Shown: positions 54,948 to 60,900, numbered from the stretch's first letter. The stretch: DNA of 64,000 nucleotides from Gemmatimonadaceae bacterium (GCA_051005405.1 JBPCJJ010000062.1:14941-78940), one strand, 5' to 3'. A program made the numbers and translations. Notes: a model not told the origin generated them from the letters alone.

Positions 54948-57900
54948 GTGGAAATCGGAGACGAGATCGAGTTCGAGGGCGTCGCTGACGCTCCGACGGG
55001 ACCCGCGCGCGGCCGCCGGCGAAGCAAGCCGAAAGCCGCCAAGCGCGCTGGCGATGGTCGGCCCACTAACGGGAATGGGTCGAAGCAGATTGAGCTGAGG
55101 CGGCTGCTGGCCGGGCTCAAGGAGCTTGGGGGCGGCGATTTCGGCGTCCGGCTCGCCGAAAGCTCTGATCCGATGATGAACGACATCTTCGCGGAGTTCA
55201 ACGCGATCGCCGAGCGAAACCAGGCGGTGACGATCGAGCTGCGGCGCGTAGCGACCACCGTCGGAAGCGAAGGGCGCATGCACGACCGCGCGTTCGTTCC
55301 CGAGGTCGAGGGCGGATGGCGCTCGATGGTCGGGTCAGTCAACTCCCTGATCACCGATCTGGTGCAGCCGACAACCGAAGTTGCGCGCGTGCTCACAGCG
55401 GTCGCCGAGGGCGATCTCAACGAGAAGATGCTCCTCGAGATGGAGGGGAAGCCGCTGCAGGGCGAGTTTCTGCGGATCGGCACTACCGTGAACACGATGG
55501 TCGACCAGCTCAGCGCCTTCGCGTCCGAAGTCACGCGAGTCGCGCGCGAGGTCGGAACCGAAGGACGTCTCGGCGGCCAGGCCGAAGTGCCGGGCGTCGC
55601 CGGCACATGGAAGGATCTCACGGACAACGTGAACACGCTCGCCGGCAATCTGACGAGCCAGGTGCGGAACATCGCGCACGTTACGACCGCGGTCGCCAAG
55701 GGCGACCTGTCGCGAAAGATCACGGTTGAGGCGAAGGGCGAGACGCTCGAGCTCAAGGACACGATCAACACGATGGTCGATCAGCTCTCCGCTTTCGCTT
55801 CCGAGGTCACGCGAGTCGCGAAGGAAGTGGGAACCGAGGGCATGCTCGGCGGCCAGGCAGAGGTGCCCGGAGTTGGCGGCACATGGAAGGATCTGACGGA
55901 CAACGTGAACGCGATGGCCAACAACCTCACCGGCCAGATCCGGAACATCGCGGACGTCACGACGGCGGTCGCCAAGGGCGACCTGTCGCGAAAGATCACG
56001 GTTGAGGCGAAGGGCGAAGTTCTCGAGCTCAAGAACACGATCAACACCATGGTGGACCAGCTCAACGGGTTCGCCTCGGAAGTGACGCGAGTCGCGAAGG
56101 AAGTAGGTACCGAGGGAATCCTTGGCGGGCAGGCGAACGTCCCCGGCGTGGCCGGCACGTGGAAGGATTTGACGGACAACGTGAACTTCATGGCGTCGAA
56201 TCTGACGGGCCAGGTTCGGAACATCGCCGACGTGACGACGGCCGTCGCGCGCGGAGACCTGTCGCGTAAGATCACCGCGGATGCGCGGGGCGAGATCCTG
56301 GAGCTGAAGAACACGATCAATACAATGGTCGATCAGCTTTCGGCGTTCGCTTCCGAAGTCACGCGAGTGGCGAAGGAAGTAGGAACCGACGGCACGCTCG
56401 GCGGCCAGGCGGAGGTGCCGGGAGTTGCCGGCACCTGGAAGGATCTCACGGACAATGTGAACACGCTCGCCGGTAACCTGACGAGCCAGGTACGGAACAT
56501 CGCGGACGTGACGACGGCGGTCGCGAAGGGAGACCTGTCGCGGAAGATCACGGTTGAGGCGAAGGGCGAGACGCTCGAGCTCAAGGACACGATCAACACG
56601 ATGGTCGATCAGCTTTCCGCTTTTGCCTCCGAGGTCACGCGCGTTGCGAAGGAAGTGGGAACGGAAGGCACGTTGGGCGGCCAGGCCGAGGTGCCGGGAG
56701 TCGGCGGCACCTGGAAGGATCTCACGGACAACGTGAACGCGATGGCGAACAACCTCACCGGCCAGATCCGGAACATCGCGGACGTCACGACGGCGGTCGC
56801 CAAGGGCGACCTCTCGCGCAAGATCACGGTCGACGTGCAGGGCGAAATTCAGGAGCTCAAGAACACGATCAACGACATGGTGGACTCGCTCAGAATTTTT
56901 GCCGGCGAAGTAACGCGAGTCGCGCGCGAGGTCGGTACGGAAGGACGGCTGGGCGGCCAGGCGGAAGTGCCGGACGTCGCGGGCACGTGGAAGGATCTCA
57001 CCGACAACGTGAACTTCATGGCGTCGAACCTGACGGGCCAGGTTCGGAACATCGCCGACGTGACCACGGCCGTCGCGCGGGGAGACTTGTCGCGCAAGAT
57101 CACGGCGGAAGCAAAGGGCGAGATCCTCGAGCTGAAGAACACGATCAACACGATGGTCGATCAGCTCAGCGGATTCGCGTCGGAAGTGACGCGTGTGGCG
57201 CGCGAGGTCGGCACGGAAGGCAAGCTCGGCGGCCAGGCGAACGTGCCAGGGGTCGCCGGCACATGGAAGGATCTCACGGACAACGTGAACACGCTCGCCG
57301 GCAATCTGACGAGCCAGGTGCGGAACATCGCGGACGTTACGACCGCCGTCGCGAAGGGAGATCTGTCGCGGACGATCACGGTCGAGGCGAAGGGCGAGAC
57401 GCTCGAGCTCAAGAACACCATCAACACGATGGTTGATCAGCTCTCGGCGTTCGCGGATGAAGTGACCCGGGTAGCGAAGGAAGTGGGCACGGAAGGAAAC
57501 CTCGGAGGCCAGGCAGAGGTGCCCGGCGTCGCGGGAACATGGAAGGATCTGACGGACAATGTGAACGCGATGGCGAACAACCTCACCGGACAGATCCGGA
57601 ACATCGCGGACGTCACGACCGCGGTCGCCAAGGGCGACCTCTCGCGCAAGATCACGGTCGATGTGCAGGGCGAGATCCTCGAGCTCAAGAACACGATCAA
57701 CACGATGGTCGATCAGCTCTCGGCGTTCGCCTCCGAGGTAACACGAGTCGCGAAGGAAGTAGGCACCGAGGGAATCCTTGGCGGGCAGGCGCAGGTGCCG
57801 GGCGCTGCGGGAACGTGGCGCGCGCTCACGGACAACGTGAACGCGATGGCGAACAGCCTGACGCTCCAGGTTCGCGCGATCGCCGACGTCGCGACGGCTG

Positions 57901-60900
57901 TGACGCGCGGCGATCTCAGCAGGCAGATCACCGTGGAGGCGCAGGGGGAGCTCGACGAGCTCAAGAACAACCTGAACCAGATGATCGGAAACCTGAAGGA
58001 AACCACGGAGAAAAACACCGAGCAGGATTGGCTCAAGACCAACCTCGCGAAATTCTCGCGGATGATGCAGGGCCAGAAGGATCTCGAGACGGTGTCGCGG
58101 CTGATCATGTCCGAGCTGACGCCGCTCGTGTCGGCACACCACGGCGTGTTCTATCTGATGGACGACACATCGGGCACGCCGGCGCTGCGTCTCCTCGCGA
58201 GCTACGCATACAAGGAGCGCAAGAACGTCAGCAACGTATTCGGCCTGGGCGAGGGTTTGGTTGGACAGGCGGCGCTGGAGAAGAAATCGATCCTTCTGAC
58301 GAACGTCCCGGATGATTACGTGACGATCGTTTCGGGGCTTGGCGAGGCGCCGCCGCGCAACATCATCGTGCTGCCCGTCCTGTTCGAGGGCGAAGTAAAG
58401 GCGGTGATCGAGTTGGCGTCGTTCCAGCCGTTCAGCCAGATCCACCAGCTCTTCCTCGACCAGCTCACGGAGAGCGTCGGAGTCGTGATCAACATGATCG
58501 CGGCCAACATGCGCACGACGGAGCTGCTCGAGCAGTCGCAGGGGTTGACGCATGAGCTGCAGAGCCAGTCCGAAGAGCTCAAGCGCCAGCAGGATGAGCT
58601 CAAGAAAACCAACGTCGAGCTTGAGCAGCAGGCCAAGACGCTGCGCACCTCGGAGGAATTGCTCAAGGACCAGCAGGAAGAGCTGCAGCAGGTCAACGAG
58701 GAGCTCGAAGAAAAAGCCTCGCTGCTCGTTGAGCAAAACCGGAATGTCGAGCAGAAGAACGCGGAAGTCGAGGCAGCGCGGGTCGCGCTCGAGGAGAAAG
58801 CGGACCAGCTCGCCGTGAGCTCCAAGTACAAGTCCGAATTTCTGGCGAACATGTCGCACGAGCTGCGCACCCCGCTCAACAGCTTGCTCATCCTCGCTCG
58901 GCTGCTGTCGGAGAACAAGGACGGAAACCTCACCGCGAAGCAGGTCGAGTTCGCGAACACCATACTGTCGTCGGGCAGCGATCTGCTGACGCTCATCAAT
59001 GACGTGCTCGATCTCTCGAAGGTCGAGGCGGGCAAGATGGACATCAGCCCGAGCGACGTGTCGCTCGTCGAGCTCACGACGTTCGTAGAGCGCAATTTCG
59101 GCCCGGTCGCGGAGGAGAAGGCTCTGACACTCGGCACCGAGATCAAGTCCGGCGCCCCGGCGGTGATCTACACGGATGGCCAGAAACTGCAGCAGGTGCT
59201 CAAGAATCTGGTGGGGAATGCCGTCAAGTTCACCGAGAAGGGCAGCGTGAACTTCACGATCGGCCCAGCCGAGCCTGGAAAGCGGTTCCAGTCGGCCGCT
59301 CTGCAGGGCGCGAAGGAGATCGTCGCGTTTGCCGTGTCCGATACGGGCATCGGAATCTCGCGCGACAAGCACCGGCTGATCTTCGAGGCGTTTCAGCAGG
59401 CGGATGGTACAACCAGCAGAAAGTTCGGAGGCACCGGGCTCGGTTTAAACATCAGCCGCGAGATAGCTCGCATCCTCGGCGGGGAGATCCGGGTCGATAG
59501 CGAGATTGGCAAGGGCAGCACATTCACGCTCTATCTCCCCGCCACGTACCACCCCGAGCCCGGCGATGACCGGGGCAGTGAGGGGGGCATGGGACAAGCG
59601 ATGGCGTTGCCCGGGAGGCCGGCGTCCCGTCCGGACTCTCTCCCGTACAGGCATGTCTCGTCCAGCGGCTCGGCTGCTTCGGCCCCAGCAAGGGAGCGCG
59701 GCGAGCCGCGGGAAGCAATCCCTGACGATCGCAAAGACATCGCTCCGGCGGACCGCGTCGTTCTCATTATCGAGAACGATCCCGCGTTCGCGAAGATCCT
59801 CTTGACCGTCGCCCGAGACCGGGGCTTCAAGGGTGTGGTAGCGCAGGACGGCGATATCGGGCTCGCAGACGCTACGGACTACCGGCCCGACGCAATCACG
59901 CTCGACATCGATCTTCCGGGCGGGACCGACGGGTGGGGAGTGCTCGACCGGCTGAAGCACAATCCGGAGACGCGGCACATCCCCGTGCATATCATCTCCG
60001 GCGTCGAGCGCAGGCAGCAGGGACTGAAGGCAGGCGCTCTGGCCTATCTCGAAAAACCGGTCAGCAAAGACACGCTCGACGAGGCCTTTGGCCGGATTGC
60101 GACGTTCATCGACCAGCGCGAGAAATCGCTGCTGATCGTCGAGGACGACGAGACCCAGCGAAACAGCATGGTCGAGCTGATCGGTGACGAGGACGTCAAG
60201 ATCGTCGCGGTCGAGAGCGCGGAAGCCGCGCTGGAAGCGCTGGCCGCGCAAAAGTTCGATTGCATGGTCGTCGATCTGGGACTGCGCGACATGAGCGGCT
60301 TCGATCTTCTGGAGCGCGTGAAGCAGGACCCGGAGATGCAGGAAATGCCGATAATCATCTATACCGGCAAGGAGCTTACGCCCGCCGAGGATACCCGGCT
60401 GCGAAAGTACGCGGAGACGATCATCGTCAAGGACGTGAAGTCGCCGGAGCGGCTGCTGGACGAGACAGCGCTGTTCCTGCATCGGGTGGAAGCCAAGCTT
60501 CCGGAAAGCAAGCGAGCGATGCTCGAGCGGTTGCACAGCTCCGATGCATTGATGACCGGGAAGCGGATTCTGGTGGTGGACGACGACGTGCGCAATATCT
60601 TCTCGCTTACCAGCGTGCTCGAGGCCCACGGGATGGACGTGCGGTTCGCGGAGAACGGCCGCGATGCGATCGCTTCGATCGAGAAGCAGCCGGACGTGGA
60701 TCTGGTGCTCATGGACGTAATGATGCCCGAGATGGATGGCTACGAAACGATGACCGCGATCCGCCAGAATCCGGAGTTCAAGGCGCTGCCGATCATCGCC
60801 CTGACCGCGAAAGCGATGAAGGGCGACCGTGAGAAGTGCATCGCCGCGGGCGCGTCGGACTACATCACGAAGCCGGTCGACACCGACCAGCTTCTCTCGC

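Follow-up and report, generated by a model that had tools for sequence, protein, structure and literature searches.

We analysed a 64,000-nucleotide (nt) stretch of a Gemmatimonadaceae bacterium assembly (GCA_051005405.1 JBPCJJ010000062.1:14941-78940; hereafter the window), in which a gene at 54948-60926 on the plus strand encodes a soluble hybrid histidine kinase of 1992 amino acids (aa) with a long tandem array of HAMP domains. The array comprises one D1-type HAMP followed by ten di-HAMP units, each pairing a non-canonical, Trp-containing HAMP (type C) with a canonical one (type D2), for a total of 21 HAMPs. This region is very probably the sensory or transmission arm of a cytoplasmic AskA-type hybrid histidine kinase, placing the protein among the kinase-associated poly-HAMP proteins as a bacterial, group III-like kinase. 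The protein is an unremarkable representative of a family that has already been described and solved structurally, not a new one.

The array extends from aa 47 to aa 1017 (55086-57998), with limits set by 46-aa modules anchored on the GD[LF] and Trp motifs, and consists of HAMP1, one 97-aa pair (HAMP2-3) and nine 92-aa pairs. HAMP1 (aa 47-92; 55086-55223, plus strand) is canonical, with GDF at aa 63, and its gapless alignment to AskA HAMP1 in Protein Data Bank (PDB) entry 9trk points to the D1 type. The first di-HAMP unit (55224-55514, plus strand) is divergent and, based on motif positions and the 9trk alignment, joins the non-canonical HAMP2, with Trp124, to the canonical HAMP3, which carries an LVQPTTE proline and a linker 5 aa longer. 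The nine in-phase units of 276 nt (92 aa), HAMP4 to HAMP21, occupy 55515-57998 (plus strand) and follow the order ABCABCAB plus a divergent terminal unit. Eleven GD[LF] motifs (aa 63, 155, 252 ... 988) and 10 Trp motifs give the 21 modules.

The Trp codons of the recurring GxW(K/R)xLTDNVN motif fall at 55608, 55884, 56160, 56436, 56712, 56988, 57264, 57540 and 57816 (55608 + 276n, n = 0-8), and a divergent tenth, at 55317, lies 97 codons upstream of the next. An earlier note on this DNA had reported these positions, their 276-nt spacing without an indel, a divergent tenth unit 5 aa longer than the rest, and about 21 modules; all of its coordinates were right, the unit lengths are indeed 97 and 92 aa, and the motif count agrees. 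The repeat is also recovered by Tandem Repeats Finder (55491-57898, period 276, 8.7 copies, 79% matches, 0% indels), and a degenerate 33-nt pattern of the motif matched 8 times in the window and 0 times in 100 shuffles. G-x-W was found in 10 of 10 alternate modules, and a 30-sequence alignment shows little or no variation in the Trp and Gly columns.

The remainder of the protein is that of a hybrid kinase. Pfam domains over the translation are HAMP (10 matches) and HAMP_2 (10 matches), then GAF_2, HisKA, HATPase_c and Response_reg (three matches). The GAF domain (aa 1044-1181; 58077-58490, plus strand; Pfam GAF_2, E 2.1e-19) is separated from the DHp domain by a Glu/Gln-rich linker (aa 1182-1294; 58491-58829, plus strand), recognised by its composition: 22 Glu and 15 Gln in 114 aa, with many EE, QQ and EQ pairs. 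The linker is conserved in the family consensus and is probably a coiled coil. The kinase core follows at 58830-59543 (plus strand), with HisKA/DHp at aa 1295-1362 (E 9e-19) and HATPase_c at aa 1410-1532 (E 3.3e-26). Three REC domains then occupy 59745-60917 (plus strand; Pfam Response_reg in three stretches, E 1.7e-65), the last at aa 1874-1985 and the first two with approximate boundaries. No transmembrane helix was found over the first 1040 aa, where the top 19-residue Kyte-Doolittle mean is 0.97, in agreement with the earlier note's statement that none precedes the array; because it has no transmembrane segment, the kinase is predicted to be soluble.

The gene was located from the open reading frame (ORF) list and its translation. 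Its GTG start has a Shine-Dalgarno-like GAGGA upstream, and the N terminus agrees with the MEIGDNLEVE of the closest database homologue (P0002). Ahead of HAMP1 lies an extension of about 46 aa (aa 1-46; 54948-55085, plus strand), which, based on the translation and a charge count, has neither a Pfam domain nor a transmembrane segment; there is thus no dedicated sensor domain by Pfam upstream of the array. The extension has an acidic start and then a basic patch, recalling the N-terminal tail of FrzCD, a multi-HAMP receptor in which that tail is reported to be positively charged and DNA binding.

The closest structural relative is AskA (MXAN_0712) of Myxococcus xanthus, for which PDB entries 9trj and 9trk are crystal structures of the first four and the first six HAMPs (Coles et al., Protein Sci 2026, PMC13446029). 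Residues 44-327 of the window protein (284 residues) align gaplessly to 9trk (E 7.7e-102), and a repeat segment matches both 9trk (E 1.4e-83) and Aer2 (3vol; E 8.8e-05). Since the six-HAMP AskA fragment covers both module types, this gapless alignment bears out the earlier note's proposal that the modules are 21 consecutive HAMPs. AskA itself has 21 HAMPs, arranged as D1 plus ten C-D2 repeats and followed by GAF, DHp/CA and receiver domains; in its HAMP3 a proline kinks the input helix and an insertion in the linker folds into a beta hairpin, the Trp that opens the output helix of each of its non-canonical HAMPs hydrogen-bonds to the preceding canonical HAMP, and Gly caps the junctions (PMC13446029). 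The window protein resembles AskA in its 21-HAMP layout of D1 and then 10 x (C + D2), its 92-aa unit with a first unit 5 aa longer, the proline kink and linker hairpin of HAMP3, the junction Trp and Gly residues, the lack of a transmembrane segment, and the GAF, DHp/CA and multiple REC domains downstream of the array. Its C/D2 alternation in fixed register, D1-type HAMP in first position, HAMP3 features, Trp and Gly residues, GAF-kinase-REC order, predicted solubility and lack of an upstream sensor domain are all those of an AskA-like kinase. It differs from AskA in coming from another phylum, its best matches being metagenome-assembled genomes (MAGs) of Gemmatimonadaceae at 73-80% identity, and in having a CheR-CheB-REC/kinase gene set directly downstream, which was unseen in the Myxococcota loci fetched.

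The two module types differ in how they are recognised. Canonical modules pass Pfam (HAMP, 39.4 bits; HAMP_2, 27.9 bits), while the D1 HAMP alone scores weakly against Pfam HAMP (13.5 bits, E 0.094). Non-canonical HAMPs are known to escape scoring by hidden Markov models (HMMs), their fold having been shown by crystallography (PMC13446029), and the alternate modules of the window protein share about 80% identity with AskA HAMP4 and HAMP6, both resolved in 9trk as four-helix HAMP bundles. Thus, 10 of the 21 modules are assigned as HAMPs through structure-based homology to AskA, not through HMMs.

An alignment-built AlphaFold2 (AF2) monomer model from 30 homologues had predicted local confidence (pLDDT) values of 85-96 over HAMP1-3 (89-96 over HAMP1), and in it the HAMP3 linker forms a short beta hairpin (EE--EE, model residues 121-126). 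When this model was used for a fold search in a library older than 9trk, all three matches at E <= 0.001 were Aer2 poly-HAMP structures (Aer2 HAMP1-3). A single-sequence AF2 run over aa 44-420 reached a pLDDT of 43.9 and was not used for the fold search. Both runs predicted a pattern of helix, 13-residue connector and helix in the alternate modules.

The family is widespread. A homologue search at E < 1e-20 returned at least 8000 candidates, 67-80% identical and from many phyla, and a scan of one genome per species yielded more than 600 matching stretches from Gemmatimonadota, Acidobacteriota, Cyanobacteria, Actinomycetota (Streptomyces), Proteobacteria, Planctomycetota, Verrucomicrobiota and Myxococcota. 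Among 120 database homologues and 80 genome loci, the Trp spacing was 92 aa almost without exception, with a first spacing of 97 aa, and arrays had 7-15 units, most often 10 or 12. The indel-free 92-aa phase is therefore a property of the family, and the array length of the window is typical of it. The earlier note had argued from the absence of indels that the phase is under selection; these alignments support that view, because nearly all of the approximately 200 homologues examined retain the 92-aa spacing. Copy number, by comparison, varies: 7-15 units in the family, and 12 in the closest relatives against 10 in the window.

Several other known systems share parts of this architecture. The earlier note had named Aer2 as the precedent for concatenated di-HAMP units, but there are others: AskA with its 21 HAMPs, AskB with 31, and the fungal group III kinases with their 92-aa pair. 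M. xanthus AskB (31 HAMPs; PMC13446029) and Streptomyces coelicolor OsaA (SCO5748; more than 10 HAMPs; PMC9739842) are, like the window protein, soluble hybrid kinases with a long poly-HAMP arm, but differ from it in array length and in partner proteins (AskC for AskB, OsaB and OsaC for OsaA). In the Streptomyces loci of our genome scan, about 10 units follow one another at the 92-aa spacing, and identity to the window protein is 57-58%. Fungal Nik1/Os-1 and Streptomyces OsaA answer osmotic or chemical stress, and AskA and AskB control development. The fungal group III kinases are eukaryotic proteins that signal into the HOG pathway; they have one receiver domain and are not known to carry a GAF domain. 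Unlike the window protein, they have only about 5-6 repeats (9-12 HAMPs). These kinases (Nik1/Os-1/Bos1/TcsC) consist of concatenated 92-aa HAMP pairs with no transmembrane region, followed by kinase and receiver (PMC3848655), and Coles et al. put them in the kinase-associated array type (PMC13446029).

Aer2 of Pseudomonas aeruginosa (PDB 3lnr) is like the window protein in alternating canonical and non-canonical HAMPs with tight, Gly-capped packing, but its five HAMPs are diverse and interrupted by a PAS domain, its output is of the methyl-accepting chemotaxis protein (MCP) type, and it has no repeated di-HAMP unit. The sequence similarity of Aer2 to the window repeat segment is weak, at the E value given above, and for Coles et al. 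it is a "multi-HAMP" rather than a poly-HAMP protein, with a non-canonical HAMP of group A, not group C (PMC13446029). The window protein, with uniform repeated units and no PAS or MCP domain, falls outside the Aer2-like multi-HAMP receptors. With no MCPsignal match and a kinase output, it also falls outside the chemoreceptor-associated poly-HAMP arrays (groups A/B); those arrays have Phe, not Trp, at the interface, and the window array has Trp at every interface.

Within the array, the first eight of the nine in-phase units fall into three classes. The ABC-ABC-AB order proposed in the earlier note was borne out by per-unit identity and by a label-permutation test. At the nucleotide level, the A units (1, 4 and 7) are 87-89% identical to one another, the B units (2, 5 and 8) 84-89% and the two C units (3 and 6) 83%, compared with 74-86% between classes. 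The ABC labels gave the top contrast of within-class minus between-class identity (86.7% vs 79.3%) among 560 arrangements (280 distinct partitions), a value attained only by the observed labelling and its A/B-swapped twin. The units had been described as near-identical in DNA, which they are not: overall identity ranges from 67% to 89%, the longest exact repeat in the array is 81 base pairs (bp), with exact repeats at 3- and 6-unit offsets, and units of the same class differ at 16-26 of 92 synonymous codons.

A clear three-unit period was present in 4 of 192 arrays surveyed and was strongest in the window; the super-repeat thus appears to be confined to a Gemmatimonadaceae-like lineage. In this feature the window differs from nearly all arrays surveyed, which did not include the full AskA sequence. 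The three nearest relatives, P0002 and P0006 (named Gemmatimonadaceae) and the locus L002 (a Gemmatimonadaceae MAG), read ABCABCABCA plus the terminal unit. The window has two units fewer, C and A (10 vs 12). Copy number therefore does expand or contract among relatives, as the earlier note had expected from such a repeat. Its further proposal, duplication of an 828-bp three-unit block, holds in part: the ABC period is real, but the gap to the closest relatives is two units, C and A, and not one block.

Third-codon-position identity between the units of the window and those of L002 is 41-61% with little class signal, synonymous sites being saturated between the two, and class-specific residues persist; the three unit types are therefore old and have stayed distinct. 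Among same-class units of the window, third-position identity is 65-79%, a level that suggests some later homogenisation. In a unit-by-unit search for orthology, each window unit matched all same-class units of P0002 and L002 about equally. A history that fits these comparisons would have the three-unit block duplicated long ago in this lineage, the three unit types kept distinct since then, and array length changed by unequal recombination in whole 276-nt units. Separately, a 1565-aa fragment among the database homologues (P0001) consists almost entirely of di-HAMP units (at least 15), with a three-unit block repeated nearly identically several times. Given the near identity of these blocks, recent three-unit amplification has probably occurred elsewhere in the family too.

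A mechanism for the arm can be proposed from the AskA structures and modelling (PMC13446029). The kinase would dimerise, with each HAMP forming a parallel four-helix bundle, and the output helix of each HAMP would continue straight into the input helix of the next to give a continuous rod, about 50 nm long by our own estimate of approximately 2.5 nm per HAMP. Gly caps and the Trp hydrogen bond would pack neighbouring HAMPs tightly, and indels would not be tolerated because of the tight helix-to-helix packing seen in the AskA crystals. Canonical HAMPs could toggle between x-da and knobs-into-holes packing, and the alternating HAMP types would pass an axial helix rotation, or an equilibrium shift, along the rod to the GAF and DHp domains, where it would set autophosphorylation. 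From the kinase core, phosphotransfer would proceed via the three receivers to partner proteins, plausibly including the REC-kinase encoded two genes downstream.

Several observations weigh against reading the region as a transmission arm of 21 HAMPs. Isolated alternate modules score no match to Pfam HAMP or HAMP_2 at E values up to 10, and an hhalign comparison of 118 alternate with 164 canonical modules gave a probability of only 14%; therefore, sequence alone cannot show homology of the two module types. The earlier note had made its reading depend on HMMs scoring both types as HAMP, and with Pfam silent on the alternate module this formally failed. The AF2 monomer model drops to a pLDDT of 36-62 beyond residue 150. 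Searches for exact copies of the kinase, beginning with either V or M, and of an upstream gene returned no record, and no independent assembly of the array was found. Finally, Coles et al. regard it as still unclear what poly-HAMP arrays do in signalling and as unlikely that all domains switch at once; length tuning, ligand binding by HAMPs and post-translational modification are among the options they mention (PMC13446029).

The main rival to a signal-transmitting arm is a passive one, in which the array is a spacer, scaffold or DNA- or protein-binding platform, the GAF domain is the true sensor, and the rod positions or oligomerises the kinase. We regard this as unlikely, although the layout of the protein offers it some footing: no input domain lies upstream of the array, GAF is placed between the array and the kinase, and the N-terminal basic patch resembles the DNA-binding tail of FrzCD. 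In vitro binding of AskA and AskB to promoter DNA and to the regulators MrpC and FruA has, moreover, been reported (PMC7643160), and Coles et al., in leaving the role of the array open, raise the idea of a "modulator tuned by length" (PMC13446029). A relay, however, needs the strict HAMP alternation, the core, Gly and Trp residues conserved across phyla and the freedom from indels that are seen here, and a spacer needs them less. Deletion of HAMP pairs in the fungal relatives also alters kinase output and fungicide response (PMC3848655), as expected if the array takes part in signalling.

The unit count could also be an assembly artefact, with the real gene having 12 units, of which two (C and A) were lost by repeat collapse. 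The 12-unit order of P0002, P0006 and L002, the exact repeats of up to 81 bp at 3- and 6-unit offsets and the lack of an independent assembly of the gene would all fit such a loss, but we consider it improbable, since units that are 67-89% identical with no exact repeat longer than 81 bp would be resolved by ordinary 150-bp reads or long k-mers. In addition, reading frame and phase are perfect, and unit 8 is cleanly of the B type, at 92% identity to unit 8 of P0002, with no sign of a chimera. Ten units is also one of the two commonest forms, found in AskA and in two other Gemmatimonadaceae/Gemmatimonas loci. That the Trp-containing alternate modules are helical linkers, leaving an array of only 11 HAMPs, is highly improbable: the silence of Pfam HAMP and HAMP_2 on the isolated module and the low hhalign score would allow it, but not readily the identity of about 80% to the four-helix bundles of AskA HAMP4 and HAMP6, the helix-connector-helix pattern of both AF2 runs, or the fact that the model's three significant fold matches, Aer2 HAMP1-3, include a non-canonical HAMP.

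Directly downstream of the kinase gene are three further plus-strand genes. A CheR-type methyltransferase (60836-61786; Pfam CheR_N and CheR) overlaps the end of the kinase gene; its start is placed at about 60911 by a 291-aa gene call on an independent contig. It is followed by a CheB methylesterase (61788-62384; Pfam CheB_methylest, E 1e-51, aa 6-181 of 198), which consists of the catalytic domain alone, with no receiver, and by a REC-HisKA-HATPase kinase (62381-63679; Pfam), whose start overlaps the CheB stop by 4 nt. The independent contig (L081; Logan contig SRR33880243_27600, 5 kb, short-read) carries the downstream CheR, CheB (exact) and REC-kinase genes; it ends close to the 3' end of the poly-HAMP kinase gene and so provides no independent check of the repeat array. 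The REC-kinase gene beside the poly-HAMP kinase recalls AskC, which is encoded beside askB and binds Rec3 of AskA.

By tblastn, the trio of CheR, CheB and REC/kinase lies behind the poly-HAMP kinase in 11 of the 80 loci fetched, which span four phyla: 10 of the 12 best species-representative loci and one further locus (L021). The L002 locus stops inside CheR. The trio-bearing loci belong to Gemmatimonadaceae, Pyrinomonadaceae and other Acidobacteriota, Microcoleus, Nostoc, Fischerella and Gaiellaceae, and the trio is missing from most of the more distant of the 80 loci. No MCP or CheA gene was seen in 60836-63679. One speculative explanation is that the poly-HAMP kinase of this subgroup is covalently tuned by its own CheR and CheB, through Glu methylation of the HAMP rod or of the Glu/Gln-rich coiled coil, in the manner of chemoreceptor adaptation but with no MCP or CheA involved; we assign this idea a low probability. 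The subgroup comprises the window and 10 of the 12 best loci (Gemmatimonadota, Acidobacteriota, Cyanobacteria and Actinomycetota). A scan for the MCP methylation consensus ([ASTG][ASTG]xx[EQ][EQ]xx[ASTG][ASTG] and a looser form) found none in the kinase, including its Glu/Gln-rich linker, and the idea is therefore without motif support; Coles et al. make no mention of CheR (PMC13446029). Modification of the kinase by CheR and CheB is thus no more than a lead. If it proved true, the di-HAMP types A, B and C could mark functionally different positions along the rod.

Upstream of the kinase gene are a RecQ-type helicase (50051-51550, minus strand), a molybdopterin oxidoreductase with a ferric-reductase-like membrane protein, forming an MsrPQ-like pair (51609-53164), and a MOSC-domain protein (53676-54863). 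The Gemmatimonadaceae locus L002 likewise has the MOSC gene ahead of its kinase (57% identity). Two further candidates were set aside. Weak Pfam matches (SpoIIID, RHH_6 and similar) were considered as DNA-binding domains, but no single stretch passes, and we regard them as by-products of the repeats and coiled coil. An antisense ORF of 1345 aa (55335-59372, minus strand) is most probably a shadow ORF, opposite a coding strand that is GC-rich and repetitive, and is without support as a gene.

As a discovery, an ordinary member of a known family carries little weight: its architecture, unit length, indel-free phase, variation in array length and even the count of 21 HAMPs have already been published. 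Only the lineage-specific three-unit periodicity and the CheR/CheB linkage go beyond published work. The protein is, nonetheless, a natural length variant, with 10 units against 12 in close relatives, for asking whether array length tunes kinase output, and its three di-HAMP subtypes have been kept distinct despite saturated synonymous divergence. The conserved CheR/CheB linkage could bear on what feeds signals into poly-HAMP arrays.

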